Source: a virus
Lineage: Duplodnaviria; Heunggongvirae; Uroviricota; Caudoviricetes
Length of the DNA: 64,000 bases
Reading direction: 5' to 3' (one strand)
IMG/VR virus record: IMGVR_UViG_2645727901_000008
This document shows positions 2,897 through 23,061 of the stretch, piece after piece (the first letter of the stretch is position 1; every line of letters begins with the position of its first letter). The notes below the pieces were generated by a model. The model had not been told where the DNA came from. It was given only the letters and a program-made list of their open reading frames with translations, and did not search any database. The translations under genes were made by a program, and so were the position numbers.

Positions 2897-3067
2897 CTTA
2901 CTGAATTCATGAACACGATAATAACAAGAGCGTTAGTTTTATCAAACCGAGGGGAATACTACTGAAGAGATAGGCGGATGCAACAGGTCGGACTTGTTTT
3001 TAGAGTAAATGGTGATGCGGGTCAACAAGCCGGGTAAATTGTATGTCATTTACCCAACTTGTTATTT

Positions 3068-3328
3068 TTAATGGTTTATTTTATCAGGTTCGTTAATTTC
3101 CGTAACCGCCTTGTCGATAGCAATCATCCATCCTTCATAGGATAAATCATCAACAAGTCCCACCAGCTTATCGTCAGTGTGCGGAAAATAAATCCATCCC
3201 CATTTCGAAGGGTTTCCTATATGCCGCAGGGTAAATACCCGCTTATAACGGTGGTATTCAAGGGCGTATCCCTTCCCTTGTGAGTACGCTTTTAAGTCGT
3301 CGATCGTAAACCTACGATTCTTCCGCAT
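3068..3328 (-). CDS. hypothetical small protein downstream of darB (P1 lxc/ulx region by synteny)
   Basis: 86-aa ORF, tightly packed after the preceding gene; no motif recognised. The P1 comparison is from memory only. Confidence 0.45.
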   Translation of the reverse strand: MRKNRRFTIDDLKAYSQGKGYALEYHRYKRVFTLRHIGNPSKWGWIYFPHTDDKLVGLVDDLSYEGWMIAIDKAVTEINEPDKINH

Positions 3329-3330
3329 GG

Positions 3331-3765
3331 CTACCCCACGATTCGATATTTCTCTATAGACTCGTCGTAACTTGTGTATACGTATGGCTCTGTATCATCA
3401 GCATAAGGCGCGACTTCCAGAGCATGAACGGGATTGTATACCGCGTCATTTTCCAGGCGATCGCTCGAATACAGATGCCCGGCTAAAACCGTAAGCGCCG
3501 GGCGACTCATTTTGTAGATTTCTGCCACATCACTATCTACAACTTGTCCAAATGATATGTCGCCACGCTCCAGCAATAACGTTTTAAGCGCAGGCCACCA
3601 CGGCCCATAAAGATGATAAAGCTGTGGATCTCTTTTCAGCCTTTCCGCCATGCCATCCAGATATGCATCCAGAAACGCCTCTTCACTCCTGCCATTGAGC
3701 GCCTGCGGCAAAATGTCCTCAAGGTAGGATTCCGTCGGTTTTACAGTGTCAATTAATGTCGTCAT
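3331..3765 (-). CDS. hypothetical protein co-transcribed with darB
   Basis: 144-aa ORF 36 bp downstream of darB on the same strand, with a short stem-loop (3770..3795) between them. Confidence 0.5.
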   Translation of the reverse strand: MTTLIDTVKPTESYLEDILPQALNGRSEEAFLDAYLDGMAERLKRDPQLYHLYGPWWPALKTLLLERGDISFGQVVDSDVAEIYKMSRPALTVLAGHLYSSDRLENDAVYNPVHALEVAPYADDTEPYVYTSYDESIEKYRIVG

Positions 3766-3801
3766 TCAAATTCGGCCCCGGTTGGGGCCGCTCCTTATCT
3801 G

Positions 3802-6800
3802 TTAGGCCGCATCGGCGATTATTTTACGCAATTCATCTACCGAGTAACGCGTAGATACCATCCATGCAGGACGGTCAAAGTTCACATCAGCAACCGGGTT
3901 TGCTTCAAAATTCCAGAAACGCCCGCCAATCTTCTTAATCGCGTCTTTGGCGTTCCGTATTGTCGAGGAACCAGGTTGGTCGGCAATGAGATAAACCGCA
4001 CCGACGTCCTCGCTGACACTCCACCAGCGCCCGCGAACACGCGCCTTAGCGCGAATCGGCTTATCATTAACCACAATGATATAGTCATCATTCGCCGCTT
4101 CATCAGCTCTGGCTTCAGCCACTGCCGCCTGCTCTTCTCTTTTGCTTTCAGCCTGTTCAAGCCTTTCCGCGATCTCTGATTCGGTGGCCCCGCCGTTTTT
4201 CAGCGATACATAGTCTTGCCACGTTGCTGATTTGAGCGCATCCGGCAACTCATTCACATAGTCACCGTCTTTCAACTCACGGGCGCGGCGGGTAGCCATT
4301 TCTACCAGGCGATTAACAGAAACAGCATCAGCAAAATCGTCCTTACTAATGTGTTTTTCATCAAATGCATTGATGACAGCCCCCACCTTAATCCACTGCG
4401 CTGCTGGCGAATCCAGAGGATTATCGGCCTGAACAATGGCTAATTTCGCTCCATCGACACCATTATTAGCCAGCTGCTCCAATGCCGACCAGCCATCGGC
4501 ATCGCTGAGTGATTTATATTGCTCAAACAATGCATCGCGCCAGGCCACCAGCGCAGCTCGTGTTTTCTCAATTTTCGCCGTAATTTTCGCGGCCTTCACC
4601 TGATTAAACATCCGTTCAATGTCATCAGTGTTGCTAAAGGCTTTCATCCTGCCCTGGAATAAACGGTATGCCACCACGGTCTTCCAGAAAGATTCCAGCC
4701 CTTCTCCGGACGGTTTACGGAACAGGCTAAGAATATCTTCAGAAGTAACTTTATTAAGTGAGCGACCGGACAAACCACGCCCTGCCATCCAGTTTTCAAA
4801 CTCCTGGGAAACATCATCCATCGTGGCCTGTGACCCCCATGCCTGCATTCCCTGGATGTAATCATATCCATACAATGCCTGGAGGAATCCCTCGCCGTCC
4901 ACGACATTCAGCGGGTTATCACTGGCTTGTATTTTTGCCACTTCACGCTTCAGCGCCTCATCGTTGCCATCAGGGTAAATCCACCGCTCAGGCGCTATAT
5001 CCGATGCTCGCCCGATTTTTTGACCTATTACGCCATCATAAGCCGATGACAGTGCAATCTGACCATCATCGGTGCGATAAGCCCAGTATTTAATAGCTGA
5101 ACCACCGCCCCATACTCTACTAGGCTTCCCGGCAGTGACATTCATTACCCCATTGCGAATAGCATCATAGAACTGATCGCGCGTAAGTGTTGTTGATAGC
5201 TGGTGGCATTGAACACCACGTGCAGCTGTTTCACGCGATTCTGCAACTCCCTCTTCAAAGGTTACCGATTCAATTATCAGGTTAAAGGGCAAAAATAATG
5301 CCGTCCCCGGAGAACGAGAGTAACGACTAGCCACATCCAGCCAGGATATGCGGCACGTACACCCGCCCCTTTCCGCATCAATGGCGGTAACACGAACAAT
5401 TGCTGTCGTATTGTGATTCTCATCGATGATCGCGCGATAATGGCTGCCCTTGTGCAACAAGATATTTTTCTCAGTGCGTACATACTCCTGTGGGTTCTGC
5501 AATACATCGGCATCAAGCTCCAGAACCCCGGCTTTAATCGCACGTTCCAGATCACCACGAGAACGTTTCATAACGGTGTCAGCGTCTTTAGCTCTGGTGA
5601 TCGCAAAGCGTAGCTCCCGCACACGTTTTCTGTAGTCTCGCAACTGTTCCAGAACATATTTCTGCCCGTTCCTGTTCGTCCCCGCTTTAATCAGGTCGTC
5701 AAGATTGCGCTGGTAATGCTCTACCTGCTCCATCGCGCTTTTCAGTTCTGTCTCCATCATGCCGATATCTTTCCCGGCAGCATTCGCCGCTTTCAGGTAG
5801 TTATCGAGAGCATTATTGGCTTCGCGTAGGGCTTTCAGTTTCAGACGTTCTTCACGCTCTTGCGCCTGACGACTCATGATTGCACGGCGTTCTTCCGGAT
5901 TTGCCGCCAGCATAATGGCGCGTTCATCTGCGTCATCCGCATCACCATTGGCGATCTCTGACATGTCGGAGGTCATCACCATATTGATCCAGTCCTTCTT
6001 ACGTTTCAGCGTATCCAGACGGAAGTCATCAAATGTGCCTTTGCCACAATAGTAGTGAACATTGACCTTTTCTTGTGGTGAGCCTACCCGAGCGCCGCGC
6101 CCATTACGTTGGTCGATACTGGCAGGAGTCCAGGGTAGTGTCAGATGGTGGATATCGGTTGTCCCGATGTGCAAGTTAATACCTACTTCAGCCTTCTTGT
6201 TACAGATTATGATGCGCGTGCGACCTTCGTTATAGTCGGCGGCAATACCTTCCATGCCCTCAAGGCCAGCATCATTTTTAGCTGAGAGATAATCCTCATA
6301 TTGGGCAAGTTTGCTGTAGTAGGTTTCCCATGCACCTTCTTTGTATTCACCGTTTTTATTTGGCGTAGGTTCAGTCGGCTTATTCACCTTCTTCAGCTTG
6401 ACGCCGCCAGCCTGGCTAACTGTCGTCGCATTGATAATGCCTATCTCCTGCTCCGGCATTTGCAGTGCACTGGCAATAATACGGCGCAGCTTCTGGTGCT
6501 GGGCTTTTTCATCAATGAAGACGATTTGTTTACCGTTCTTCAGACCTTCACGAAGGTTTTCGATCAGCGCGGCATACTTCGGCGGGATGGGGTGTGATAC
6601 CTGCTGCATATCAATACCGGCAGCCGCAATGGCCTTCAGTATTTCAGCTTCCAGTTCAATGCCAGCACGTATTTCAACATGCGACGGATGTTCGCTAAAG
6701 GTGGTCTTCACTACCTTGCTGGCACGCGTACTGACCAGCCCACCAGCGCCATCTTCTTCGGCCTCGTCTACATCATCTGCCACTTTACCGCCAGCTACTT

Positions 6801-9800
6801 TTGGCAGGGCATCAGCAATAGCTTTTACCTTGTCTGCAAGCTCAACGGGGAACTGGAATGTAATCGCACTGGCATACAGATCAGGATCTATAGCAACCTT
6901 ATCCATGTCGCGGATGATGGAGAAGATGAAATCATCCGGTTTTTCGTTTGTGATATGCCCGTTTTCATCGACCGTCAGCGCATCTTTACTACTTAACTCC
7001 TGTGCACGCTTACGAAGTTCTTCGTAAATGGCCTCTTGCTCTCCTGTCATCGGGATCTGCAAGGTATTCTCGACAATATCAGGGATTTTTACCGTCGCCC
7101 CGACGTCCGCAGCAGTCTTCAGAGTAGTCCAGCGATGGAAAATACCACGCAGACCATCCAGGTTCTGGAAGCCCACCAGTCCCTGCTTCTCTTCCACCTC
7201 ACCGGAAATTTTCTGAACCTGAACTGTGGCTGTTTTACCGAACACGCGAACGAAATCATCCGGCGTAACAATACCCATGCGCATCCACTCTTCCTGCGGA
7301 ATGACAGTAGACAGCATGTTGAAAGCATCAATCGGGCTGTTCACCAGCGGTGTTGCCGTCAGCATAACCACACCACGCCCGTTGTTGCGTTTCATCATGT
7401 ACGCAGCTTTTACAGCCATGTCGCGGGCCATTTTGGATACTGCCGGGTTAGGCAAATATGCCAGTTGCCCCGCTTCGCGCCCGGCGCTAAAGGAGTTGCG
7501 GTAGTTATGCCCTTCGTCGGCAATTACGCTATCGAAGTTCATATCCTCAAAGTACGGGATATTCTGCTTCTTCGTTGTACCGGTATTTGCGGCCTGGTCC
7601 TTAATCTTGTTCTTCTTCTGCGCGTCACGGTGTTTGCCAGATGCCAGGTCAAGACGCCCCATTTCCACAGCATTAAAGACCGCTTGCTGTGAGTTTTCCT
7701 CAATGGTTTCTTCTCGTAGCGGGATAGACGCGAATTGCTCTTTTGTCATGATGACCGTTCGCCAATTTGACGACGGGATCATGTTCATGCGCTGAACGAT
7801 AACGGCGCTGGCGGACTCTTTCACAACATTTCTGGTAAGAGCCTGCCCGTTACTGTCGAGGCGTGGTTCGCCATTTTCATCAAGCACCGGCGCGGTCAGA
7901 ATATTTCCGCTGTCATCACGAACTTCATCCAAACCGATAAACATCATATTGGCGAAGGCATCAGAACTGTAGAAACTCTGTGCCTCGTGATACCAGTTCT
8001 GATAAACCGCCTTCGGAACAACAATACACGTGCGTTTAGTGCGACCTGTTTCGAAGTTATACGCCTCAAGCGCAAGCGCGGTCGTGGTTTTACCCAGCCC
8101 GGTGCCAAATCCCATGATGCCGCGCCCATCTTCTGATAAGCGACGAACTTCTTCATTCTGATAAGTCAGAGGAATGCGCTTCCCACTAATCCCCTCCAGG
8201 CCAAGCGGTGCGTCAGAATGCGTAAACGGGATGAAGCCATTAAATGCGTCGTTATAGTCGCGGGCTATCTGATCAGCCTGCGGGTGAGTGCGTAACCAGT
8301 CGTTGAAGCTAATTTCCAGTTGAGCAATCTTATCCAGGTACTCGTTAGCGTTCTGCCCACGCGGTTTAATGCCGTTCAGGTAGTTTTCTAACTGGTTCAG
8401 GAAGCCGTCTTTATTGTTGGCCTTCTTGAACTCATTCCCGTTTTTGCCGTTTACGGTTCGTAGTTGATAGCCAGTAAATACCCCGTCCTTACCTTCGTAA
8501 TCGTCCGGAGATACCAGAATGCCGTCCTCAACCTTAAGGTCGGGTTCTGTATACTTAAACTCGTCATAGCCCTGCTCTGCCAGGAACTCTTTTATCAAGC
8601 GGCGATCCAGCCAGCGGGCGTTCAGATTAACGGTGACTTTATTTAGTGGCGTGAAAATGCGTTTCTCTTCGATTTTCGCCAACTGACGCTCAAAGTTCGC
8701 TTTCTGCTCACCTGTTGACGCATCACGCCAGCCCACCAGCAATGCTGTTTTGGTTGCAATATCGCCGCTGGTGGCGCGGTCCATCGGCAGCAGGCAGCCA
8801 TACCCATCAATAGCGATATCATCAAATTTCGCCAGGTATTCCAGAGCAGCATCGTCGTCTCCTGGCAGTTCGCCAGCAAACGCCTCACGAAAATCGTCCA
8901 GTGTGATTGGATTAAGTGCCACGTCACTGAAAAGGTGGGTTACAACTTGTTCCGGGCGTGTAAAGTCAATACCGGCAGCACCATCCGTTACATCAAGTCG
9001 TCCAGCAAGGAGGTCAGAAGCAGAGCCGTCCTGTTTCACGTTGCCAGTGAAAGTCATCCAGTTTTTAGCGCCAGCTTCAGCAATCCCATTCAGCTTAATC
9101 GCGTGCGGCGGACCATACTTCGCAATTTCGGCTTCCGCCAGGCGCGCGGCATCAGCAAGTACATCATCAACATTTTCCCCCAGATTACGCTTATCAAGCG
9201 CCTTGTTGATCAACTGCCCTATCAGTGCGCCGCGCATAACGCGTTCTCTGTCTTTTTCTCTCTGCTTGCCAGCAAAGCGAATCATTGCCGCTACTTCATC
9301 ACTGATAACCGATGGATAGTCGGACGCGATCGCCGATATCTGGTCCCATGACAACGCCAGAATGCCATTTGTTGACTGAAACGCGATCTGCAGATCACCA
9401 AACGTCGTAACACCATATCGATTTACATCAAGCGCGGAGGATTTGGTTGTCGCGTCCTTGACCCATTTCAGACCATCAAACTCATGCCAGATGCCGCCTA
9501 CAAGGCGTTTATCGCCCACTTTCGCGCCCTGCCATGCCTGAGTAGTTACGCCAAGCAAATCCCAATTAATGCGGCTTTCAAAGCGGCGCGATAGAGCGGT
9601 TTTCATCGACTCATTGGATACACGACCGTCCTTTTTCACCACCAGGGTATTGCGGAAGCTGGTACGCTCCATATCGCCGTAAACAAATCGCTTCCCTTCG
9701 GTTGTAAACCATTTTCCTTTGAGGAAGGTATCCCAAAGGACGTTTGCCGATTTGAGCGTTGCATCATCCGTGTCGGGGATCATCTCCAGGAAGGTTTCCG

Positions 9801-10641
9801 GGTGTTTACGCAATACCCATACGTCCACCACGGTATCTGTACCGGATTCGCTGAACGTACCAGAAGGCATACGATGTGCGCCCAAAAATTCCGCTTTACG
9901 GCTGACTTTATCGCGCAATTTTTTGTATTTCGTACCATCGGTCATGCCATTCGGCACCACCAATACAATTAGTCCACCAGGTTTAACCTTGTCGATCGTG
10001 CGCAACACAAAGTAATTGCCAACGTTCTTCTCGTTTGCATATGCCGGATCAAGCCCGGCAACGCCGGAACGCCCTTCACCAAACGGTACGTTACCAACAG
10101 CGTGGTCATACATTGCGTCTTTCGCCGCCAGCGCCTCAAACGCCCCGATATTCACATCGTCTTCCGGGTGCAAAAGCTGGTTTATTCGACCGGAAATCGG
10201 AGACAGTTCGGCGCTGGTCATTATCATGCCCTGCCGTTTTGTCTCCTGGAAAATACCTGTGCCCGCTGATGGTTCCAGTACGTGCCCACCATCAATACCG
10301 TAGTCAGCAAACAGATCCCATATACCTTCAGCCATAAACTGTGGCGTGTAGTATTCGTATTGGCTGCCCTCACCATCTGTCAGGCCGCCTTCACCGGTAT
10401 ACCCGGCAAGAATCTGACGTTGTTCGTCAGTTAATTTCGCCCCATCGAAGCCGGGCGGAAGGGAATTAAGAAGATTTACTGCGGCATTGTTTGCTGCCCG
10501 GCGTGTTTTCTGAATACTGACGCCATCGGCTTTCCTGACGCCAAAGGTCGCAACAGCACGTAATTTATGCAACCGACTAACAATTTCAATCAGTTCGCCT
10601 AAGCTGGAGGCTTCACTGATTGAATGAAGTAGTTTGTCCAA
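3802..10641 (-). CDS. darB: DarB-like antirestriction protein (N-terminal methyltransferase + helicase domains)
   Basis: 2279-aa ORF. SAM-binding-like VLEPSAGTGIF, Walker A GLGKTTTALA and DExH box VIADEGHNYRN are present. Size and architecture match P1 DarB (about 2255 aa, from memory). Start is TTG with SD gaggggg. Confidence 0.8.
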   Translation of the reverse strand: MDKLLHSISEASSLGELIEIVSRLHKLRAVATFGVRKADGVSIQKTRRAANNAAVNLLNSLPPGFDGAKLTDEQRQILAGYTGEGGLTDGEGSQYEYYTPQFMAEGIWDLFADYGIDGGHVLEPSAGTGIFQETKRQGMIMTSAELSPISGRINQLLHPEDDVNIGAFEALAAKDAMYDHAVGNVPFGEGRSGVAGLDPAYANEKNVGNYFVLRTIDKVKPGGLIVLVVPNGMTDGTKYKKLRDKVSRKAEFLGAHRMPSGTFSESGTDTVVDVWVLRKHPETFLEMIPDTDDATLKSANVLWDTFLKGKWFTTEGKRFVYGDMERTSFRNTLVVKKDGRVSNESMKTALSRRFESRINWDLLGVTTQAWQGAKVGDKRLVGGIWHEFDGLKWVKDATTKSSALDVNRYGVTTFGDLQIAFQSTNGILALSWDQISAIASDYPSVISDEVAAMIRFAGKQREKDRERVMRGALIGQLINKALDKRNLGENVDDVLADAARLAEAEIAKYGPPHAIKLNGIAEAGAKNWMTFTGNVKQDGSASDLLAGRLDVTDGAAGIDFTRPEQVVTHLFSDVALNPITLDDFREAFAGELPGDDDAALEYLAKFDDIAIDGYGCLLPMDRATSGDIATKTALLVGWRDASTGEQKANFERQLAKIEEKRIFTPLNKVTVNLNARWLDRRLIKEFLAEQGYDEFKYTEPDLKVEDGILVSPDDYEGKDGVFTGYQLRTVNGKNGNEFKKANNKDGFLNQLENYLNGIKPRGQNANEYLDKIAQLEISFNDWLRTHPQADQIARDYNDAFNGFIPFTHSDAPLGLEGISGKRIPLTYQNEEVRRLSEDGRGIMGFGTGLGKTTTALALEAYNFETGRTKRTCIVVPKAVYQNWYHEAQSFYSSDAFANMMFIGLDEVRDDSGNILTAPVLDENGEPRLDSNGQALTRNVVKESASAVIVQRMNMIPSSNWRTVIMTKEQFASIPLREETIEENSQQAVFNAVEMGRLDLASGKHRDAQKKNKIKDQAANTGTTKKQNIPYFEDMNFDSVIADEGHNYRNSFSAGREAGQLAYLPNPAVSKMARDMAVKAAYMMKRNNGRGVVMLTATPLVNSPIDAFNMLSTVIPQEEWMRMGIVTPDDFVRVFGKTATVQVQKISGEVEEKQGLVGFQNLDGLRGIFHRWTTLKTAADVGATVKIPDIVENTLQIPMTGEQEAIYEELRKRAQELSSKDALTVDENGHITNEKPDDFIFSIIRDMDKVAIDPDLYASAITFQFPVELADKVKAIADALPKVAGGKVADDVDEAEEDGAGGLVSTRASKVVKTTFSEHPSHVEIRAGIELEAEILKAIAAAGIDMQQVSHPIPPKYAALIENLREGLKNGKQIVFIDEKAQHQKLRRIIASALQMPEQEIGIINATTVSQAGGVKLKKVNKPTEPTPNKNGEYKEGAWETYYSKLAQYEDYLSAKNDAGLEGMEGIAADYNEGRTRIIICNKKAEVGINLHIGTTDIHHLTLPWTPASIDQRNGRGARVGSPQEKVNVHYYCGKGTFDDFRLDTLKRKKDWINMVMTSDMSEIANGDADDADERAIMLAANPEERRAIMSRQAQEREERLKLKALREANNALDNYLKAANAAGKDIGMMETELKSAMEQVEHYQRNLDDLIKAGTNRNGQKYVLEQLRDYRKRVRELRFAITRAKDADTVMKRSRGDLERAIKAGVLELDADVLQNPQEYVRTEKNILLHKGSHYRAIIDENHNTTAIVRVTAIDAERGGCTCRISWLDVASRYSRSPGTALFLPFNLIIESVTFEEGVAESRETAARGVQCHQLSTTLTRDQFYDAIRNGVMNVTAGKPSRVWGGGSAIKYWAYRTDDGQIALSSAYDGVIGQKIGRASDIAPERWIYPDGNDEALKREVAKIQASDNPLNVVDGEGFLQALYGYDYIQGMQAWGSQATMDDVSQEFENWMAGRGLSGRSLNKVTSEDILSLFRKPSGEGLESFWKTVVAYRLFQGRMKAFSNTDDIERMFNQVKAAKITAKIEKTRAALVAWRDALFEQYKSLSDADGWSALEQLANNGVDGAKLAIVQADNPLDSPAAQWIKVGAVINAFDEKHISKDDFADAVSVNRLVEMATRRARELKDGDYVNELPDALKSATWQDYVSLKNGGATESEIAERLEQAESKREEQAAVAEARADEAANDDYIIVVNDKPIRAKARVRGRWWSVSEDVGAVYLIADQPGSSTIRNAKDAIKKIGGRFWNFEANPVADVNFDRPAWMVSTRYSVDELRKIIADAA

Positions 10642-10736
10642 AGGATTTCCCCCTCTAAACCGTAAAAAATTCCGCTATGCGGTACGGTTGAGAGGGTATG
10701 GAGAATGTTATTTTCAGGGGGACGATACTACCGTCA

Positions 10737-10751
10737 AAATCACATACTCCC
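10737..10751 (+). promoter_or_regulatory. late-promoter-like motif (aaaatcacatactcc)
   Basis: Copy of the conserved motif (sense AAATCACAnACTG), 42-56 bp upstream of the CHAP gene ATG. Confidence 0.4.
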
Positions 10752-10792
10752 CATAGTTTGCCTACTTATTAACCCATGACCGGGAGAAAAAT

Positions 10793-11278
10793 ATGGCAAA
10801 CATTGAACCTCGCTGGCTAATTGAAGCCCGTAAGCACATTGGCCTGACTGAAATAAAAGGCGCTAAACACAACCCTGAAATCGTTCAGTTCTGGCGCGAC
10901 ATCAAGCGCGGCGGAATTAAAGACGATGAAACGCCGTGGTGCGCAGCATTTGTCGGTGCAATGCTGGAACGTGTAGGCATCCGCTCAACAAGATTTGAGT
11001 CGGCAAAATCCTATCTGGATTGGGGCGAGAAATTAGATACACCGGCATACGGATGTATCGTTGTATTTACCCGCGTAGGCGGTGGGCACGTAGGCTTCGT
11101 TGTCGGACGCCGTGCCAATGGCGATCTGCTTGTCCTGGGTGGGAACCAGGGGGATGCTGTTAATATTCGCGCATTCCCAACATCAAGAGTGTCTGGCTAT
11201 CGCTGGCCTGCTGGCGAACCACGCAATACCGCTCTGTTACCAGTCGGAGACGCAGCAACCTCAACTAATGAGGCATGA
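10793..11278 (+). CDS. CHAP/NlpC-P60-like peptidoglycan hydrolase (candidate endolysin)
   Basis: 161 aa with a Cys...His arrangement (TPWCAAFV ... GGGHVGFVV) typical of CHAP-like hydrolases. Good SD; late-type motif upstream. Confidence 0.55.
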   Translation: MANIEPRWLIEARKHIGLTEIKGAKHNPEIVQFWRDIKRGGIKDDETPWCAAFVGAMLERVGIRSTRFESAKSYLDWGEKLDTPAYGCIVVFTRVGGGHVGFVVGRRANGDLLVLGGNQGDAVNIRAFPTSRVSGYRWPAGEPRNTALLPVGDAATSTNEA

Positions 11279-11280
11279 AA

Positions 11281-11302
11281 AAAGCCCCGGCCAGGCCGGG
11301 GC
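11281..11302 (-). terminator. intrinsic terminator ending the immI-like operon
   Basis: Hairpin gccccgg/ccggggc; the U-run follows it only in the minus-strand orientation. Confidence 0.5.
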
Positions 11303-11310
11303 ATCACGCT

Positions 11311-11511
11311 TCAATTCACGATCCAATCATTACCGACTATATCAGCCGTCGATAAATCAACTTCCCGGATCTGGAGTCCATTAATACAAAACCATCCGGT
11401 AGTAGAGTAATTATCAGGCCAGGCCCATACACCAACACTCCATGCTTTACGGCGGCACACTTCAGCCTGTCCTTCCCTGATTTTTTTTACCGCCTGCATG
11501 ATGTCCATCAC
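11311..11511 (-). CDS. hypothetical small protein
   Basis: 66-aa ORF whose start overlaps the stop of the Rha-like gene; followed by the terminator. Confidence 0.3.
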   Translation of the reverse strand: MMDIMQAVKKIREGQAEVCRRKAWSVGVWAWPDNYSTTGWFCINGLQIREVDLSTADIVGNDWIVN

Positions 11512-12215
11512 TCACCTCCCCAACCGATCACCTGGAATTGCCCCATTTTGGGGTGATACCAGCGTTTTCCTCGGTGTTCAGCCTCCGACATCATCCGGTT
11601 AAAAGCATTCATGAAGGGAGATAAGGCCACGATGGAACGACGCGACAATACCCCCTCTGGAGTTAAAAACTCATGTGTATCGGTGGGGATCCGGTAAGCG
11701 TTAACCAGGTTGCGACATTTGGCTTCGGTCAGGCCGCATTTTGCCGCCAGCTGGCGGTAGCCAATGTAACCTTCCGGCATGTTGCCCTTCTTGATTTGCT
11801 CGACGGTTTCTACCACCTGGCTAACCTTTGACTCAACAACATGAAGCCGCTTTTGCTGCTGAACTGCATTTGCAGCCATTGCGGCGATCATCTCTATTTC
11901 GGTCAACGGCTGGCGTGCTTGTTCTTCCAGTTCGCGCCAGCGGTCCACCAGCCGGGCGGTGAATTCGGGAGAGAGCTGCGCGACGACGATAATGCTATCG
12001 CGCTTGCCTTGCTCGCCTTCGAAGACGTAAGCCTCAACACTACGTCGTAGTCCTAAGTTATTGATTTTTTCGAAAACCTCAATTTGAGGACGAACAATAA
12101 CGCCACCTTTGTCTAATGTCTCAATAGTGCGTTTCACATTGTCATGACGTTTTCCCACCAGCTCCGCGATCTCAATGCTGGTCATTGATGGCTTTTCGAG
12201 AATGCAGATATCCAT
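11508..12215 (-). CDS. Rha-family phage regulatory protein / antirepressor-like
   Basis: N-terminus MTSIEIAELVGKRHDNVKRTIETL matches the Rha/antirepressor N-terminal pattern. Sits in an operator - leader - small ORF - ant-like arrangement. Confidence 0.6.
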   Translation of the reverse strand: MDICILEKPSMTSIEIAELVGKRHDNVKRTIETLDKGGVIVRPQIEVFEKINNLGLRRSVEAYVFEGEQGKRDSIIVVAQLSPEFTARLVDRWRELEEQARQPLTEIEMIAAMAANAVQQQKRLHVVESKVSQVVETVEQIKKGNMPEGYIGYRQLAAKCGLTEAKCRNLVNAYRIPTDTHEFLTPEGVLSRRSIVALSPFMNAFNRMMSEAEHRGKRWYHPKMGQFQVIGWGGE

Positions 12216-12439
12216 CAGTGAGCCTCCGCAATGCCGGGATTGGTAATATTGCGATACCAGGGATTGGTGTTTGGTTGTGGGGAAGTGGAGAAACGACCAG
12301 TGAGAACGCCATACTGATCAGGGATCAGAGAACGGGCTTCTTTTTCAGTTGCGGCAATTGCGAAGTGATCGCAGTGTTTTTGCAGGGAGTGAAAACGCCA
12401 GATGAATTCTGGACGTGAGCAAGGATTGGCATTAACCAT
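12215..12439 (-). CDS. hypothetical small protein (icd-like position)
   Basis: 74-aa ORF whose stop overlaps the start of the Rha-like gene. The position resembles P1 icd upstream of ant; no sequence motif supports this. Confidence 0.3.
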   Translation of the reverse strand: MVNANPCSRPEFIWRFHSLQKHCDHFAIAATEKEARSLIPDQYGVLTGRFSTSPQPNTNPWYRNITNPGIAEAH

Positions 12440-12787
12440 AGTTACGGCCTCACTAACAGGTTTAACAACCTGCTACCCGCTGCTAAACAGGTGGCAGGAC
12501 GTGACGGGGTTAGCAGACTGGCGTTAGTGAAACCAGCAGGCCGAAGCCTCCCCATCACGCCCCACCATAATTTGGGCGTAACGCGGTTTTACGGACACAA
12601 AAATACCGCAATATCGGATATCTGCGGTTGTCCGCACTAACATTCAGGCTGCTAAACCCGGTCGCAGAATTTGCTACGACGACATGAATATAAGCCTGAA
12701 AACATGGAAGATCAACTAAAAATTTCAGCAATAGATGACTTCAGTCGATGATGCAGATCATACATTCCGATTTAGAAACGGCAAATT

Positions 12788-12805
12788 AATTTTCTAACAC
12801 AAAAT
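12788..12805 (+). promoter_or_regulatory. C1-operator-like motif copy (aattttctaacacaaaat)
   Basis: Motif at the head of the about 350-bp leader preceding the small ORF and Rha-like gene. Confidence 0.45.
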
Positions 12806-12853
12806 GTCGAGCGAGCATTTTCCGATCATTGGGATGTTTTGTAGACGCACAGG

Positions 12854-13816
12854 TCACCCCCTAAAGCCAGCCGGGATTGACCAATCCTCACGGTCAAATT
12901 CAGACCGATAGCCACGCTGTTTCATCAGGTCAAAGGCTTCACCAATGGTTGCACACCCCTGGGAGCCAGAATAATCCATTGAGAAATCCAGGGCACTGGA
13001 TTGTTTAGGCTTATTCACTGCGGTAGCGGCACTACGTATCCATGCAAATTTTTTTGCCAGCTTTTCAGCGGTACGATACAGAGCCTGCCGTTTTGTGTGC
13101 CCCTCGTCTGAACGACGCTTTGCAGCTCTCGCTTTTGCCGCCGCCAGGCAGTGGTTGGTCTGTTCTTCCCTGATTACTGTTTTTTTATCCAGCACCCCGT
13201 TATCCGTTTGAGAACTATCTGCTGGTGAAGCCTTTGGCTGAACCGCGCATGATCTTTCTCTTCTTTTGGCTATAGAGTGACTCTTATTTTCTATTGGCTG
13301 TTCATTTTGAACATGGGGGGACTTGTTCAATTTGAACAGGGGGTTCCCAGTTTCAAAAAAATAACGAACCTTTGAAATCAACTGCTTAACCAGTTTTGTG
13401 GCGTTGGCAAATTTGATGCCCTGCTTACCCCCTATCTCCATTGCTACATGAATGAAGTGGAGAAATTGTGTCGTAAACCGATATACGTTACACACCTGGG
13501 CATTGTTATTCGCTACCTGATGTTGCTTAACAAGCATTCCGCACTTCGTCGCTTCAGCAAATGCCCGGCGTACAGTAGAAATACTGCGTCCTGTAATCTC
13601 GGACATATCAGCATATGAGCGACGGATCATGTATTCATCGGTAGACCCTGCCAGGTTGGCGAACTCGGCAATAATGGCGCTATGTGAAGGGGAAAGAAGA
13701 CCGCTATGACGAGCAAAAAAACTCAACTGATGACCTTTGATTTTTTTGTGGTATTCAGTGTTGTTTTTATACTCAGAAGTGTTGAAAGTTACTGAAACTG
13801 AATTTAAAATATTCAT
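12854..13816 (-). CDS. HTH DNA-binding protein (RepL-like or regulator)
   Basis: 320 aa with a helix-turn-helix-like segment MSEITGRSISTVRRAFAEATKCGMLVKQ and a basic C-terminal half; function not resolved. Confidence 0.5.
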   Translation of the reverse strand: MNILNSVSVTFNTSEYKNNTEYHKKIKGHQLSFFARHSGLLSPSHSAIIAEFANLAGSTDEYMIRRSYADMSEITGRSISTVRRAFAEATKCGMLVKQHQVANNNAQVCNVYRFTTQFLHFIHVAMEIGGKQGIKFANATKLVKQLISKVRYFFETGNPLFKLNKSPHVQNEQPIENKSHSIAKRRERSCAVQPKASPADSSQTDNGVLDKKTVIREEQTNHCLAAAKARAAKRRSDEGHTKRQALYRTAEKLAKKFAWIRSAATAVNKPKQSSALDFSMDYSGSQGCATIGEAFDLMKQRGYRSEFDREDWSIPAGFRG

Positions 13817-13876
13817 CAGATAGTTCCGTGCAAAAATCTATCTACCGTATAAATCTATGCCAGTGGATTTATACAC

Positions 13877-13911
13877 CAAAAAGCCGCTTCTCAGCGGCTT
13901 TTGCTTTTTTT
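13877..13911. terminator. bidirectional intrinsic terminator
   Basis: Hairpin aagccgc-ttctca-gcggctt followed by ttgcttttttt, with an A-run upstream. Confidence 0.6.
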
Positions 13912-13985
13912 GGCAGTCGCTACCGGAGCAGTGACCGCGATCCTACTCAATCACATCGGACAGGATCAACAGTGTATATAAATAC

Positions 13986-14005
13986 ACTATGTTAGAAATT
14001 TAATT
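13986..14005 (-). promoter_or_regulatory. C1-operator-like motif copy (reverse orientation)
   Basis: Reverse complement reads aaatttctaacatagt; adjacent to the palindrome agtgta-tataaa-tacact. Confidence 0.4.
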
Positions 14006-14016
14006 TCATGCAGCGG

Positions 14017-15015
14017 TTATCCCCGTCGCGAAACGAAGAGTAATGGGGTAGTATTTTTGCTCTCCTTCGGCGATAACTCCGGCTCTTTCTTGCCTGATAT
14101 CGGCAAGCCATAAGTCGCATTTGCCCCCAGAGATTCAAGCATCGCAGCCACTATGCGAGCATCATCTTCAGACTGCATACGGCAGAGCGCCCGACGCTGT
14201 TCTGCGCTGATAAAAACAGGCAGCTCCTGGATAGCATCACGCAAAATCCTACGGCATTTCTTCGCATCTTCGCCCTGGCTTTCCATCATTGCGGCCTGGT
14301 TGCGTAATTCGTCGCGAAGTTGCATATTTTCCACTTCAAGGAGCATCAATTCTGACTCAAGGGCTTCACGCTGTGCTGACTCGAAAATAGCCTGCTGATT
14401 CTTCATTGCTGAAAAGTGGTGAACAAGATCCGTAGCCGCGTTATCGGTAAAACCTTGTTCGATAAGTGCCGCATGAATAGCCGCGTCGCGCTCTTCTGCT
14501 GATTCCAGCATCAGACTTTTCTTGTCGAGGCTGATATAGTTAGGCACAGTTACGTAATCAAAGCCGTGGAAAGACTTTACCAGGGATACCGATGAATCTG
14601 GACCAGATGTAGCCCACGACCAACCACCAGCACCAGAGTTAATCATGCCCTGAACAATACGCCCGGTGTCTGTATCCAGTATTTCCTGCGTATGAGTAAC
14701 AATGCCGTTGTCGTCAATCGAAATGTCGATAGTCCTGTTTGACGGCACGTTCTCCAATACAACAGGCTTCCCATCTACCATCACAACAGAGACTTCCGGC
14801 AAGTTCAGGCTTTTCGTTTTGTTATAGTGCATCGCCCGGCGACCATGACCGTAATAACCATACATCTCACCCAGCGCGATACGCTCTTTTGTTTCTGGCG
14901 AGTTGAATGTGTCTCGTACCGACTGAATGACGTAATTTCGGTTGTTCTGCGGTGTGTGTTTGCGGATTTTCTCTACCAGGGAGAAGCGATCCGTAACAGT
15001 ATTCAGTGATTGCAT
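14017..15015 (-). CDS. putative head morphogenesis protein (prohead protease/scaffold-like)
   Basis: 332 aa with a C-terminal coiled-coil segment, immediately downstream of the putative portal gene. Assignment by position and composition only. Confidence 0.4.
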   Translation of the reverse strand: MQSLNTVTDRFSLVEKIRKHTPQNNRNYVIQSVRDTFNSPETKERIALGEMYGYYGHGRRAMHYNKTKSLNLPEVSVVMVDGKPVVLENVPSNRTIDISIDDNGIVTHTQEILDTDTGRIVQGMINSGAGGWSWATSGPDSSVSLVKSFHGFDYVTVPNYISLDKKSLMLESAEERDAAIHAALIEQGFTDNAATDLVHHFSAMKNQQAIFESAQREALESELMLLEVENMQLRDELRNQAAMMESQGEDAKKCRRILRDAIQELPVFISAEQRRALCRMQSEDDARIVAAMLESLGANATYGLPISGKKEPELSPKESKNTTPLLFVSRRG

Positions 15016-15028
15016 TATTTCCCTCCGG

Positions 15029-16711
15029 TTAATTGCTCATCACAAATTTTGCAAAGTTTATTAACTGTTCTGGCGTCCAGTTTTCCGGATCGTCACCGGA
15101 CGACAACGGCGCGGATTCGTACATACCATGCTCGTTGTTTTGCTCTGATTCATTCGCCTTAAACTCTTTGATCATGGTGTTGAGAGTGTCATCGTCGATG
15201 TGCAACTGCTCAGTGAACAGATAACGCATAAACGCGTCGCTACCAGCCAGTTTCGGGTTGTTCTGGATCTGGTCCATAATTTGGGAGATGACAGCAACAA
15301 AGTTGGCGCGTGCATCCAGTTCTCGGTTTTCCTCTTCCTGGATAGCAGTGTTCATTGAGTTGAATTGCACGTCATAAGGGCGGTTTGTTTCGGTGTAAAC
15401 CTTGCCGTATTTATAAGCGAGGTGAATGTCCAGAAGCCGATAAATAGTTCGCTGGGCGGCCTGTCTGATCCAGTTCGCACGCAATGCAGCCTGGATAGCA
15501 GTTTGCTGCCAGCCGCCTTCTCCAAGCCCTCCGCTCATCTGATCAGCCCAGCCAAGCATTGTTGCGTCAATGCCGAGGCTTGCAGCAAGCTGCCGGAGGT
15601 GAAACATAACGTCTTCGATACCACTGATATCTGCGGGTATGGATTGCGTATCAATGGTGATGCCGTTCTTCCCGTCTCCCATAACAGGTATCAGATGGTT
15701 AAGCACAGTCGGAATAGCGTTGGCATTAATCGACCTTTGCGCCACCAGGTCACTATGACGCTTCAATGCCTGGCTGACGCCACGCGTATAGTTCGCCGCA
15801 TTAACCGGGTCCAGTGTGTTCGTCGTAAGAGCAATCAGGCGGTCAATTTTGGCTGCATTATTTCGCGTTGATTTCAGCGCGGCGAGCGAAGCACATAAAT
15901 TAAGGTAAGGTTCATAGCTGTATTCCAGGAATGAAGTTCCGTAATTCTGCGTCTCCATTAACGGCTTATCAGCCTGATCACTTAACAGTGAATACCCTTT
16001 TGTACCGTAGCTAACCGGAATAACCTTATGCTGCGGCGTCCAATACGGGTTTTTCATGGAAACAAGATTCCACGGTTCGGTTATTACCCTGCGCAAACTA
16101 TGCGTATCCAGAATGTAATCACCACTAAAACCGACCAGCTGGCTACCGCGATAAAATTCCTGGACGAAGTGTGGAAGAGTGTAATAACTGGATTCAATGC
16201 CAGTTATCCCTCTGCCCTGTTCAGCATAAGGTCGGACATAAGACACCCCAAAGATCGCCATAATCATGGCCCATGAAGGAAGTCCGTCATTAATCATTGC
16301 CCCCAAATCAGCTGTTAACTCTTCACACCTACTTACCGCCTCGGCATCGGAACCATCTTTTGGCGAAAGCATGAATGCCAGCCCGGTTTTCTTTGAAGGC
16401 GCAAGCGCATGTGCAATATGAATGTTTAAAGCCGTTGAGATAGTCGGGCTTTTAGCCATCGTTTCCAGGATGTTGTACTTTTGCAGGCGCTCGCCGGGCA
16501 GTTCAGCGGATAAAGAAATTGAATCTGCTGCACTCGTCATGCCATCGCTGTTGCTACCCAGGATGCCTGGACGTAAAGCGGACAGGCCGGAACGAGCAAC
16601 GACACTATGCCCGCTCGTAAAAACGACCGGATCGGCGGGCGTAACATCACCACCGTTGAAGGCTTTCTTCAATGCCGACAGAAAGCCTTTGTTTTTGTCT
16701 TTCGTTGCCAT
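15029..16711 (-). CDS. putative portal protein
   Basis: 560 aa, first gene of an operon with a late-type motif upstream. Size and position fit a myovirus portal; no diagnostic motif. Confidence 0.45.
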   Translation of the reverse strand: MATKDKNKGFLSALKKAFNGGDVTPADPVVFTSGHSVVARSGLSALRPGILGSNSDGMTSAADSISLSAELPGERLQKYNILETMAKSPTISTALNIHIAHALAPSKKTGLAFMLSPKDGSDAEAVSRCEELTADLGAMINDGLPSWAMIMAIFGVSYVRPYAEQGRGITGIESSYYTLPHFVQEFYRGSQLVGFSGDYILDTHSLRRVITEPWNLVSMKNPYWTPQHKVIPVSYGTKGYSLLSDQADKPLMETQNYGTSFLEYSYEPYLNLCASLAALKSTRNNAAKIDRLIALTTNTLDPVNAANYTRGVSQALKRHSDLVAQRSINANAIPTVLNHLIPVMGDGKNGITIDTQSIPADISGIEDVMFHLRQLAASLGIDATMLGWADQMSGGLGEGGWQQTAIQAALRANWIRQAAQRTIYRLLDIHLAYKYGKVYTETNRPYDVQFNSMNTAIQEEENRELDARANFVAVISQIMDQIQNNPKLAGSDAFMRYLFTEQLHIDDDTLNTMIKEFKANESEQNNEHGMYESAPLSSGDDPENWTPEQLINFAKFVMSN

Positions 16712-16751
16712 GAATCACCGCGAATTGTTTCCAGTTTCGCGGCAGCATAAT

Positions 16752-16765
16752 CAGTATGTGATTTG
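16752..16765 (-). promoter_or_regulatory. late-promoter-like motif (cagtatgtgatttg)
   Basis: Motif 41-55 bp upstream of the portal-like gene start. Confidence 0.4.
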
Positions 16766-16795
16766 ATAGGAGAGTTTTATTGGTGCTGTTAATGA

Positions 16796-17128
16796 TTACT
16801 TACACGCTTCCCTGCCCACATAGTCAGCGATGGAACCACTTACAATCCCCCCCATTTTGGGATCAGGTTTTGAATTTTTCATCTGTTCAAGCGTCTCCCC
16901 AGAACCAAGATACTTCACTTCATTTGTCATGCAATTATATATTCTCTTCGAATATGCTGTCCCAGATGGGCCTTCCCTTTTTGTAATGATAGTTTTATAT
17001 TCACCTTCACGACCAATATCCAGCACTGTATAAGTAGCTTTTGGATCAGAAGGGATTTTTATCTTATAGGGCGCAGCACAAACTGATGCAGAAGCTAATA
17101 AAGCACAAACCAGGATTATATTTCTCAT
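16796..17128 (-). CDS. secreted small protein (signal peptide), cargo
   Basis: 110 aa; N-terminus MRNIILVCALLASASVCA is a signal peptide with an AxA-type cleavage site. Lies in an AT-rich islet. Confidence 0.5.
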   Translation of the reverse strand: MRNIILVCALLASASVCAAPYKIKIPSDPKATYTVLDIGREGEYKTIITKREGPSGTAYSKRIYNCMTNEVKYLGSGETLEQMKNSKPDPKMGGIVSGSIADYVGREACK

Positions 17129-17172
17129 AACTATACTCCATGTTATAAATTATCAAAGCTAAGTAAGTAAAA

Positions 17173-17730
17173 CTAATCTGGATCAACAATAAGTTGTGAA
17201 ACCTTCGCTGCAAGTCTTATATAGCGTTCAGCTTCATTTCTGGTGATTTCAAAATCCAGAAAGTGCGCGGCTTCATTTCTTAGCGAGCGAAGCCGTTTTA
17301 ACAGCAAAGCAGCGGAATCTTCAAGTTTTCCTTCTTGAATCAACCAGTCAATGAATAGTTCTGGATTCCGTTTCGGCTTTAACCCTCCCTGTATAAAACC
17401 AGAGCGCCCGGCAGCCTCCTCTACCATCAACCATGACTCCATAATAGCAGCTCTAGGTGAAAAATCAGCAATTCTCTCTAATTGTGCGATTTTATTTATA
17501 TATTCAGAGTTATTATTACCATTGTTAATATTTTTATTCCCAACTGATGCATCTGTTGCTAATACTTCTGCTGCGGTTAGTCCCGCATTAAACTCAGCTT
17601 CAGCTGCTCCAATCTTGAATCTACTCAGACGTACTATTAACTCCTTAATATCAACCCCATACTTATTAACAAACCACACAAACACCAATGGCCATGCAAG
17701 AGCTGAAACCAAATCTGTAAATGATGACAT
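17173..17730 (-). CDS. membrane-anchored HEPN-like protein (Rx4H motif), cargo
   Basis: 185 aa; N-terminal hydrophobic helix SALAWPLVFVWFV and C-terminal LRSLRNEAAHF (R-x4-H, HEPN-type). AT-rich, with no late motif upstream. Confidence 0.5.
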   Translation of the reverse strand: MSSFTDLVSALAWPLVFVWFVNKYGVDIKELIVRLSRFKIGAAEAEFNAGLTAAEVLATDASVGNKNINNGNNNSEYINKIAQLERIADFSPRAAIMESWLMVEEAAGRSGFIQGGLKPKRNPELFIDWLIQEGKLEDSAALLLKRLRSLRNEAAHFLDFEITRNEAERYIRLAAKVSQLIVDPD

Positions 17731-17855
17731 CGGTTATCCTCATTCATTATATTCTCAGCTAGTTTACATATTATTAAACAGGAACAAAAATGAATTATGC
17801 GCCCATCTTCAGATATGTTATGAACGCACAGAAAGAGCATTAAGTTACATTGATG

Positions 17856-19232
17856 TTACCCAACAGAGGTTGACTCAAACATAGAAAAAATTAACCCTTT
17901 ACCTTCGCCAAACTCAGTCTCAATTTCATCAGAAACGGCAGATAAAATGCTACGCAGATCGACATCTCCGCCGCCGAACATATCGCCTAACGCTTGTTGT
18001 TGGTGAATAAGTTCATCGTTAATTTTTTGCGCCAGTTTCTTGAAAGCGGCCCCCATTCGCTTAGCGCTTCGGTTGTTGGCAACAATAAACAGAGCAAGCG
18101 CTTCTGCTTCCGGAGTGCTATCTCCAAACAATCCACGCTGTGCGATCACCTCTTCTACTGCCTGACCGTTATCTTTTGCTTCACGAACAAGGTTAATTGC
18201 TTCCTGGAGTGCTGCTATCGCCTGTGTATCCAGGCCATTAACCTGCTCTATACCGTCCACTAAGCCTGTTACTGCGTCATGGTGAGCGTCGCCAGACAGC
18301 GACTGCATTTGCGCAAAATCGCTGGCTGCCGTATTTAATGCGGTCAGGATATTACGCATTTCCGGATCTGGCTCTTCCGACACTAGCCGAACAAGCCTTT
18401 CATCCTTGTACGCTTTGGCAAAAATTGCATTCTGGATGCGATCGATAAGCTGTTTCGTGGGACGCCCATCGGCAGTAAGCAAGCCTGCCGTCGCTGTATC
18501 GCCAATTTCGCGCAAAAACGCACGAATAAACGCATCATTGGACCGCGCCAGCAGATTTCCATCATCTGAAGGATTAAATAGCGCCATGACGCTCTCAGTG
18601 AGAAATTGCGCATCCGCATACGCTTTTTCACTTGCTGCCATCTCTTGCAGATCGCTAATGTTTGAATCGCGGGCAAATTGAGCGCGGTCTACATCTGTGA
18701 GTCTTTCTCGCACTAGTACGGGCATAGACATTTGCGAAATTTCGTCAGGATTCAGACCAAACTCTTTCGCATGGTCGATCAGGTACTGGCGATACTCATC
18801 CGCCTGTCCTTGCTCATAGGCACGCCAGATACCCATACTCCTTCCGTTGCCGGATTCAACAACGTTGTCCGGACCAACTATCGGCGCTCCGTGGCTGCTC
18901 ATACCGGAATCCGTTAATTGTGCCGGGCGTAAATTGGAGGCAATACGGTTAACCTGGAGTTTGCTGGATAGCCGGGTACGATCTCGTGGTTGGAGTTCTT
19001 CCGGGAAGGCCGGGTTAATCATACCGTCAAGGTTGTTCGAAATGATCAGACTGCTGGCATCAACGACCTTAAAAGCCGTCTTTACCTCTGCACCTTTGCT
19101 GGTGACTACGTAGCTACTTCGCCCCAGGCGTGTTTCTTTCCTCTCTAATGAAGAAACCAGAGCAATGACGCTGTTAATATCTGCGGCCTCGGAAAGCGCA
19201 GAAGTAACTGATTTGTTCAAAATACACTCCAA
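17856..19232 (-). CDS. hypothetical virion-associated protein (Dar-operon neighbourhood)
   Basis: 458-aa acidic protein with its own late-type motif upstream; position suggests a head internal protein. Confidence 0.45.
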   Translation of the reverse strand: MECILNKSVTSALSEAADINSVIALVSSLERKETRLGRSSYVVTSKGAEVKTAFKVVDASSLIISNNLDGMINPAFPEELQPRDRTRLSSKLQVNRIASNLRPAQLTDSGMSSHGAPIVGPDNVVESGNGRSMGIWRAYEQGQADEYRQYLIDHAKEFGLNPDEISQMSMPVLVRERLTDVDRAQFARDSNISDLQEMAASEKAYADAQFLTESVMALFNPSDDGNLLARSNDAFIRAFLREIGDTATAGLLTADGRPTKQLIDRIQNAIFAKAYKDERLVRLVSEEPDPEMRNILTALNTAASDFAQMQSLSGDAHHDAVTGLVDGIEQVNGLDTQAIAALQEAINLVREAKDNGQAVEEVIAQRGLFGDSTPEAEALALFIVANNRSAKRMGAAFKKLAQKINDELIHQQQALGDMFGGGDVDLRSILSAVSDEIETEFGEGKGLIFSMFESTSVG

Positions 19233-19260
19233 CTATAGAGAAAGCTGTGAGTGTAAAAAG

Positions 19261-19271
19261 AGTGTGATTTA
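19261..19271 (-). promoter_or_regulatory. late-promoter-like motif (agtgtgattta)
   Basis: Core GTGATTT 29-39 bp upstream of the 458-aa gene start. Confidence 0.35.
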
Positions 19272-19314
19272 TGTGAGAACAGAGAAGTGAAAGGGGCATT
19301 TCGCCCCCTTTTGA

Positions 19315-23038: not shown

Positions 23039-23061
23039 TTACAGGACATCTTCTAGAATCT

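Follow-up and report, generated by a model that had tools for sequence, protein, structure and literature searches.

We analyzed a 64,000-nucleotide stretch of viral DNA (hereafter the window; IMG/VR record IMGVR_UViG_2645727901_000008), which by sequence comparison is a D6-like, P1-family plasmid prophage, and found that its loci at 3802–10641 and 17856–22983 are the D6 variant of the P1 Dar antirestriction system, a variant already known and annotated in GenBank. The orthology of these dar genes to those of P1 is essentially certain on alignment, and it is highly probable, by analogy, that they do the same job as the P1 Dar system. Only the figures for divergence from P1 and a two-allele cassette inside darB are mildly new.

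In BLASTP comparisons, eight proteins of the window aligned with their P1 counterparts at 33–64% identity with E-values from 2e-23 to 0; because the E-values lie in this range, the matches are not due to chance. An earlier note on this DNA, made from the letters alone, had proposed that the divergence from P1 DarB, DarA, DdrA, DdrB and Hdf be quantified by pairwise alignment; every one of these alignments was significant, and the identity range given above supplies the figure.

DarB and Ulx

The darB gene (3802–10641, minus strand) encodes a 2279-amino acid (aa) antirestriction protein and starts at a TTG codon at 10641, behind the Shine-Dalgarno sequence GAGGGGG. The protein is 95.2% identical to D6 DarB and 40% identical to P1 DarB (BLASTP, 39.8% identity, aa 1–2279 vs 1–2255, E = 0, 1519 bits). 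This full-length match bears out the proposal of the earlier note that a 2279-aa open reading frame (ORF) with both methyltransferase and DExH motifs is DarB; the gene runs on the minus strand. Within the PHROGs families, DarB belongs to phrog_1685 over its full length, and the P1-type family matches best only aa 2–1473.

DarB consists of an N-terminal region, an N6-adenine methyltransferase, a SNF2-type DExH helicase and a lineage-specific C-terminal module, in that order. The methyltransferase domain (9742–10374, minus strand; about aa 90–300) contains motif I as EPSAGTG (aa 123) and motif IV as GNVPFG (aa 183), and this region is 53–56% identical to P1 per 100-aa bin. The Pfam N6_Mtase model matched aa 152–282 with an E-value of 4e-4 and a score of 20.2 bits, just below the 20.4 cut-off, where P1 DarB itself reaches 31.6 bits; furthermore, the domain has a weak match in the Protein Data Bank (PDB) to a methyltransferase subunit of a type I restriction-modification system (7eew_A). 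A linker with 29–48% identity to P1 leads to the helicase core (5833–8175, minus strand; about aa 823–1603), which was delimited by Pfam and motifs and is 44–68% identical to P1 per bin. The core contains Walker A GTGLGKT (aa 846), DEGH (aa 1042), TATP (aa 1095) and QRNGRG (aa 1511), and three Pfam models matched above cut-off (SNF2-rel_dom at 5e-14, ResIII and Helicase_C). All catalytic motifs of both the methyltransferase and the helicase are intact, being identical in the window, D6 and P1. The C-terminal third alone still aligned with P1 (BLASTP, 28%, E 2e-69).

As in P1 and D6, darB is closely followed by ulx (3331–3765, minus strand; 144 aa), whose product is 46.4% identical to P1 Ulx (BLASTP, E 8e-45) and matches phrog_1629, annotated as ‘Ulx-like anti-restriction’, at 4.5e-59. 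In P1, Ulx helps DarB enter the head. The earlier note did not mention this homolog.

The darA operon

The second locus (17856–22983) consists of six consecutive, abutting minus-strand genes, lydA-lydB-hdf-darA-ddrA-ddrB. The reading of this locus in the earlier note, a holin-led operon laid out like the darA operon of P1, holds: the gene order is identical and the named genes have significant P1 matches. The gene lengths it had given for the last four products (206, about 640, 122 and 458 aa) agree with the 206, 641, 122 and 454 aa that we obtained from Shine-Dalgarno-supported starts, the last being 458 aa when counted from the first TTG.

The operon is led by lydA (22657–22983, minus strand), which encodes a 108-aa holin that is 43.4% identical to P1 LydA (BLASTP, E 1e-24) and matches the holin family phrog_1527 at 8e-39; the Pfam LydA-holin model scored 18 bits, below its cut-off of 28.4. 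The next gene, lydB (22211–22657, minus strand), encodes a 148-aa LydA antagonist (antiholin) with a Pfam LydB match of 1.1e-24 and 34.1% identity to P1 LydB (E 2e-30).

The hdf gene (21601–22221, minus strand) starts at ATG 22221, behind AAGGAG, and encodes a 206-aa DarA paralog comprising a DarA-N domain (Pfam DarA_N, 8.4e-18 over aa 16–111) and a C-terminal helix. Hdf is 39.6% identical to P1 Hdf over its first 145 aa (BLASTP, E 4e-32), and matched phrog_1620 (‘Hdf-like antirestriction’) at 1.4e-76. A phmmer alignment extended the similarity to P1 Hdf over aa 8–204 (PDB 9ukm_H, 1.6e-25), the 9ukm chains being those of the 2026 cryo-EM structure of the P1 virion. Hdf keeps the VNDTGDIS..KLNGK motif, and the NX+ motif of DarA-N domains is conserved.

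The darA gene (19683–21608, minus strand) starts at ATG 21608, behind GGAGGA, and encodes a 641-aa internal head protein. Its product is acidic, as the earlier note had read it (107 aspartate and glutamate vs 73 lysine and arginine residues, counted on the 654-aa longest ORF). Similarity to DarA, on which that note had made the identification hinge, is pronounced: the protein is 38.4% identical to P1 DarA (BLASTP, E 4e-140), matches the P1 DarA chain 9ukm_I at 4.8e-122, and scores 1132.5 bits against the NCBIfam equivalog NF052326 (anti_RE_DarA, ‘antirestriction phage head protein DarA’), the cut-off of which is 350. Both Pfam domains were also found far above their cut-offs of 27 bits each (DarA_N, 135.6 bits, 9.7e-40; DarA_C, 68.2 bits, 9.1e-19). 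The first ~35 aa from ATG 21608 (~48 aa on the longest ORF) have no alignment to P1; cleavage of an N-terminal propeptide by the prohead protease Pro is a trait of DarA. Between darA and ddrB lies ddrA (19315–19683, minus strand), encoding a 122-aa homolog of P1 DdrA (BLASTP, 33.1%, E 2e-23; phrog_1855, ‘DdrA-like anti-restriction protein’, 4.8e-50).

A short form of DdrB

The last gene of the operon, ddrB (17856–19220, minus strand), encodes a protein of 454 aa, or 458 aa from the first in-frame TTG, that contains the DdrB-ParB domain only. The domain is well supported (Pfam ddrB-ParB, 1.9e-42, 144.7 bits vs a cut-off of 27.6), the ParB motifs QPRDRTR and ESGNGR are kept, and identity to P1 DdrB is 64.3% (BLASTP), confined to aa 2–446 of 995. 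The assignment of this gene to DdrB in the earlier note thus stands for the N-terminal 446 aa and not for the peptidase half, which is missing in comparison with the 995-aa P1 protein. A tblastn search of the whole window with aa 447–995 of P1 DdrB, which includes HELGH at 872, returned nothing (best E 0.4). As a candidate remnant of the peptidase half, we considered a tblastn alignment that continues for ~27 codons beyond the ddrB stop and rejected it as too weak and not significant. By its sequence, the DdrB of the window is a short, ParB-only form, as in D6, and we did not file it as a P1-type DdrB. P1 DdrB is processed to a shorter form before packaging, probably by its own peptidase (PMC5512222); because of this processing, a ready-made short DdrB is plausible.

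The spacer between ddrA and ddrB (19221–19314) measures 82–94 nt, compared with 12 nt in P1, and contains a GC hairpin (19293–19307; GGGGC-GAAAT-GCCCC on the coding strand). Acting as an attenuator or as a processing site, this hairpin could reduce the expression of ddrB.

Between ddrB and the portal gene we observed a ~1.1-kb islet (16715–17855) with two minus-strand ORFs (17173–17730 and 16796–17128), the 185-aa one having sub-threshold Pfam matches to DUF4145 and HEPN_RiboL-PSP. We considered these two ORFs as Dar or known defence genes and rejected this assignment; they have no P1 counterpart, no PADLOC match and only sub-threshold Pfam matches. The islet is present in D6 and occurs whole in only 14 plasmid records; the plasmid closest to the window is without it and has 65 bp at this place. 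The islet could be an accessory (moron) cassette outside the Dar system.

The C-terminal module of DarB and a two-allele cassette

The C-terminal module of DarB (3805–5844, minus strand; aa 1600–2279, ~680 aa) is only 20–30% identical to P1, and we found no Pfam domain in it. A word-indexed homolog search with this module gave close fragments only; an exhaustive HMMER search of 1.84 billion cluster representatives gave just 27 matches. Its full-length relatives are DarB-type proteins of ~2200–2300 aa that are 36–53% identical and keep most catalytic motifs. On these homologs, the module is specific to the DarB lineage. An AlphaFold2 model from a 14-sequence alignment was locally confident (pLDDT 84.1, pTM 0.43) and predicts a coiled-coil hairpin, a small beta domain, a helical domain and a C-terminal beta domain. 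Foldseek searches with this model returned nothing at E <= 0.001 in the PDB or BFVD. A resemblance to Tudor/KOW-like small barrels recurred in these searches, always with E >= 0.2, and we do not claim it.

Within the module, a cassette of ~450 nt (5242–5691, minus strand; DarB aa ~1651–1800) covers the small predicted beta domain together with the last part of the coiled coil, and exists as two alleles. Its nucleotide identity to D6 is 63–82%, compared with 84–100%, mostly above 90%, in the rest of darB. Identity to the window among plasmid records is bimodal, with 27 records at >=99%, one at 90–95% and 89 at 60–80%; the window carries the minority allele and D6 the majority allele. Between window and D6, the synonymous divergence (dS) of the cassette is 1.35 vs about 0.25 in its flanks, and the ratio of nonsynonymous to synonymous divergence (dN/dS) is 0.14. 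We rejected positive selection on the cassette given this low ratio with a saturated dS. Because a dN/dS of 0.14 accompanies a saturated dS, the sequence data indicate an old allele brought in by recombination.

It is conceivable, and in our judgment quite unlikely, that the cassette is a specificity determinant whose recombinational exchange switches the restriction or defence systems, or the hosts, that DarB counters, and that the short DdrB marks a Dar assembly pathway other than that of P1. If true, this would make the cassette an exchangeable target-recognition element of an anti-defence protein that the virion delivers.

Selection on the dar genes

We estimated dN/dS between the window and D6 by the Nei-Gojobori method. 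The ratios were 0.07 for ulx, 0.095 for darB, 0.16 for ddrB, 0.12 for ddrA, 0.26 for darA and 0.09 for hdf (overall range quoted, 0.05–0.26); lydA and lydB had too few substitutions for an estimate. These sequence comparisons show that the dar genes are under purifying selection, with no sign of decay. Synonymous divergence differed more than 10-fold between adjacent dar genes, from 0–0.02 for lydA, lydB and hdf, through 0.05–0.07 for ddrB and darA, to about 0.26–0.27 for ddrA and darB. On sequence grounds, this spread indicates recombination breakpoints inside the operon, which fits a mosaic, recombining history of such elements.

Relation to phage D6 and distribution among plasmids

The window is collinear with phage D6 over positions 1–23797. 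Nucleotide identity to D6 is 92.9% across the entire 3802–10641 interval and 97.9% across 17000–24000, the region of the darA operon; by comparison, P1, P7 and SJ46 match the darB interval in only a ~170-nt patch, at ~80% nucleotide identity. In addition to the DarB figure given above, protein identities to D6 are 97.9% for Ulx, 98.0% for DdrB, 94.3% for DdrA, 95.8% for DarA, 99.5% for Hdf and 100% for both LydB and LydA. The dar loci of D6 and of the window are alike in gene content, order, strand relations and neighbors, and they share the short DdrB as well as the pair of small ORFs that follows ddrB. In the GenBank record of D6 (MF356679 / NC_050154), ulx, darB, ddrB, ddrA, darA, hdf, lydB and lydA are each named ‘similar to P1 gene’, with orf14 as ulx, orf15 as darB, and orf25–30 as ddrB, ddrA, darA, hdf, lydB and lydA.

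At least 80% of the 3000–11000 region, which holds darB, was present in 113 plasmid records and in 93 of 5426 complete E. coli genomes (~1.7%). The carriers are nearly always ~90-kb non-mobilizable plasmids, and the closest, L003 (NZ_AP027678.1), is 99.1% identical. An antirestriction module of D6-like plasmids has already been mentioned in the literature (PMC6799933). The finding is therefore an ordinary one, since the dar genes are already annotated in D6 and are common in E. coli plasmids.

We counted 34 copies of the Chi sequence GCTGGTGG in the window vs 1.6 expected, a more than 20-fold enrichment that none of 100 shuffles came close to. Six of these sites lie inside darB (at 4021, 4545, 5199, 6740, 8733 and 8767). 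P1 is likewise reported to be enriched in Chi, with 11 sites in its darB (PMC11109961).

Transcription signals

Late promoters of P1 carry a -22 box that reads AAGTGACTT, AAGTGACTA, AAGTGATTT or AAGTTACTT, and the P1 darA operon is transcribed from the late promoter LPdar. In the window, we found a tentative candidate for a late-promoter (Lpa) -22 element, AACTGACTA (23020–23028, minus strand), which differs from the first of these boxes at two positions and precedes the lydA ATG by 37–45 nt on the coding strand. The pattern AACTGACTW occurs four times in the window vs 0.91 expected, a count reached by 1 of 100 shuffles, at 23020–23028 (minus), 30981–30989 (plus), 55622–55630 (minus) and 60752–60760 (plus). 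From this modest excess, AACTGACTW may be the D6-type Lpa site. The P1 box AAGTGACTT with one mismatch was not enriched in the window (18 vs 14.2 expected), and there was no convincing -10 hexamer at P1 spacing after AACTGACTA upstream of lydA. A scan of 3400–23300 for sigma-70 promoters and terminators revealed no excess over shuffles (promoters, 20 vs 26.3; terminators, 26 vs 19.9).

Probable function and its alternatives

In P1, EcoK/EcoB-type restriction is countered in cis by DarB, and EcoA-type restriction by DarA, Hdf and DdrA. All six Dar proteins have been detected in P1 virions, with about 40 DarB copies per virion and DarB loaded last (PMC9024508). Furthermore, 55 DarA-Hdf pairs lie on the inner capsid surface at the penton-hexon junctions, where they contact DNA, and are absent from emptied heads; DarA-Hdf is needed for normal head size and for the loading of the other Dar proteins, whose incorporation is ordered (PMC12810830). 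For DarB, a mode has been proposed in which the SNF2 motor is coupled to the adenine methyltransferase on entering DNA (PMC5512222).

By analogy with P1, the lydA-lydB-hdf-darA-ddrA-ddrB operon and the darB-ulx unit of the window would be expressed during late lytic growth. Hdf and DarA would attach to the inside of the procapsid at the penton-hexon junctions and help to set head size, and the resulting Hdf/DarA platform would load DdrA, and then DdrB, Ulx and DarB. The Dar proteins would be co-packaged with the DNA and, on infection, exit the head together with it. DarA, Hdf and DdrA would then guard the entering DNA against type I restriction of the EcoA type, and DarB would shield it in cis from EcoK/EcoB-type systems. 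DarB probably travels along the entering duplex by means of its SNF2 motor while the N6-adenine methyltransferase acts, or else it displaces the restriction complex. The sequences of the window establish orthology, synteny, intact catalytic motifs and purifying selection; packaging into the virion, co-injection and the identity of the targeted restriction systems are expectations carried over from P1.

Several points weigh against assigning the P1 function unchanged. We found no experiment on Dar function for D6 or D6-like phages, and the functional assignment rests on the 33–64% identity to P1. The N-terminal 30 residues of P1 DarB suffice for capsid targeting (PMC9024508); the corresponding segment of the window is identical to P1 at 8 of 30 positions and to D6 at all of them, and residues 6–10 of P1 DarB (MGVFR), implicated in packaging, read HSISE in the window. 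The C-terminal ~550 aa of P1 DdrB, its zincin peptidase half, are absent from the window, and because DdrB lacks this half the P1 assembly pathway may not transfer unchanged. No clear late promoter was definable, the -22-like box being modestly enriched and its -10 region poor. Finally, the mechanism of DarB is described as undefined even for P1, and plasmid-borne darB assays are confounded by DNA-mediated restriction alleviation (PMC11109961). By sequence, the diverged N-terminal segment of DarB is compatible with a signal co-adapted to the capsid and Dar partners of D6, and equally with loss of the targeting signal.

A doubtful possibility, although the strongest of the alternatives, is that the darA operon is mainly a head-morphogenesis module in which DarA and Hdf act as auxiliary scaffold and determine head size, with antirestriction secondary or lineage-specific and perhaps missing in D6-type phages. 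In P1, about 80% of heads are of normal size but only about 15% once darA or hdf is deleted, and the DarA-Hdf pairs are structural components of the inner capsid (PMC12810830). The capsid-binding regions are also the best conserved in the window, as seen in the DarA_N region and in the alignment of Hdf to the P1 virion chain, and the darA operon lies among head genes, with the portal and protease genes at 14017–16711 (the Pro homolog at 14017–15015 being assigned by correspondence to D6 orf21). However, morphogenesis and antirestriction are not exclusive, since the same P1 proteins do both. For the dedicated antirestriction components DdrA, Ulx and the 2279-aa DarB, no role in morphogenesis is known, and they are nonetheless maintained intact under purifying selection.

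It is unlikely that the D6-type system is instead rewired or partly disabled relative to P1, with DarB loaded by another route, in other amounts or not at all. The length of DdrB (454 vs 995 aa) and the lack of a HELGH zincin segment in the window agree with such a change, as do the diverged N-terminal 30 residues of DarB and the separate PHROGs family of D6-type DarB. Nevertheless, the short DdrB is 98% identical between window and D6, with a dN/dS of 0.16 and its ParB motifs kept, and P1 DdrB is itself shortened by processing before packaging (PMC5512222). DarB retains every catalytic motif at a dN/dS of 0.095, and a useless 6.8-kb darB would not remain intact in more than 100 plasmids.

That DarB is a prophage defence helicase of the DISARM, Zorya or Dpd type, guarding the lysogen from other phages and not the incoming phage DNA, is extremely unlikely: its helicase C-terminal lobe does match the DrmD, ZorD, DpdE and BrxH models weakly and locally, but the scores are far below the family cut-offs (DrmD, 43.7 bits vs 610; DpdE, 31.6 vs 500) and reflect generic SNF2 motifs only, the PADLOC matches are local and confined to the helicase lobes, no partner genes of those systems are adjacent, and the protein has full-length, collinear homology to the virion protein DarB with ulx as its neighbor as in P1. 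We therefore rejected a DISARM, Zorya or Dpd identity for DarB.

The reading as a Dar system has practical value for annotation, as the RefSeq labels on D6-like plasmids are ‘SNF2-related protein’, ‘head protein’ and ‘hypothetical protein’. So large an anti-restriction investment of the D6 type occurs in about 1.7% of complete E. coli genomes. Work on the mechanism of DarB and on Dar assembly gains three starting points from the comparison with P1: the short form of DdrB, the diverged C-terminal module of DarB with its cassette, and the diverged targeting segment.

Neighboring and more distant features

A CHAP-domain gene (10793–11278, plus strand) is divergent from darB (Pfam CHAP, 2.7e-07; RefSeq label, TIGR02594 family). 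Just past its 3′ end lies an 8-bp, all-GC, terminator-like hairpin (11284–11302), which was called on the minus strand.

Several features differ between the window and its relatives. The Cin-invertible tail-fibre segment (~23800–26900) has the orientation opposite to that in the D6 record, with the tail-fibre C-segment inverted, and is only 88–90% identical to D6, compared with 94–98% in its flanks. About 1.3 kb of the window (49115–50406) replaces ~3.1 kb of D6 that carries a ParA-like gene, orf61 and glnS (glutaminyl-tRNA synthetase). Smaller gaps in the D6 match (56172–56556 and 57157–57764) fall in, or next to, the part of D6 with the RelE/HigA addiction module, and 60576–64000 has no match to the D6 region compared (record positions 32000–76000). 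In plasmid L003 (24033–25202 of NZ_AP027678.1), a gene for an InsQ/TnpB-family RNA-guided endonuclease lies between icd and repL; the window is without it.

Comparison with P1 and other known systems

The P1 Dar system is said to have been described by Iida in 1987 and by Piya in 2017. All six of its components, together with LydA and LydB, are also present in the window in the same operon order, so that synteny extends to every member. P1 DarB has the same order of methyltransferase and SNF2 helicase and the same catalytic motifs as the DarB of the window, and the P1 domains DarA-N and DarA-C, the DarA-N domain of Hdf, and DdrB-ParB are likewise present. Unlike P1, the window has neither lydC nor hxr, and its darB adjoins the CHAP-domain gene, whereas P1 darB is divergent from prt/pro (portal, protease). 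The three main D6-type departures from P1 are the short, ParB-only DdrB, the diverged C-terminal module of DarB with its cassette, and the diverged N-terminal segment of DarB.

The other system to which these proteins compare is the methylase-SNF2 helicase dyad of polyvalent proteins, of which DarB is the archetype, as described by Iyer, Burroughs, Anand, de Souza and Aravind in 2017 (PMC5512222). The ParB plus peptidase architecture of DdrB was described in the same work (PMC5512222). Like the DarB of the window, the dyad (PMC5512222) joins an EcoKI/TaqI-like adenine methyltransferase to a SNF2-clade ATPase within one giant protein whose gene lies among the late genes of a phage, and the only difference of the window protein from it is the lineage-specific C-terminal module.

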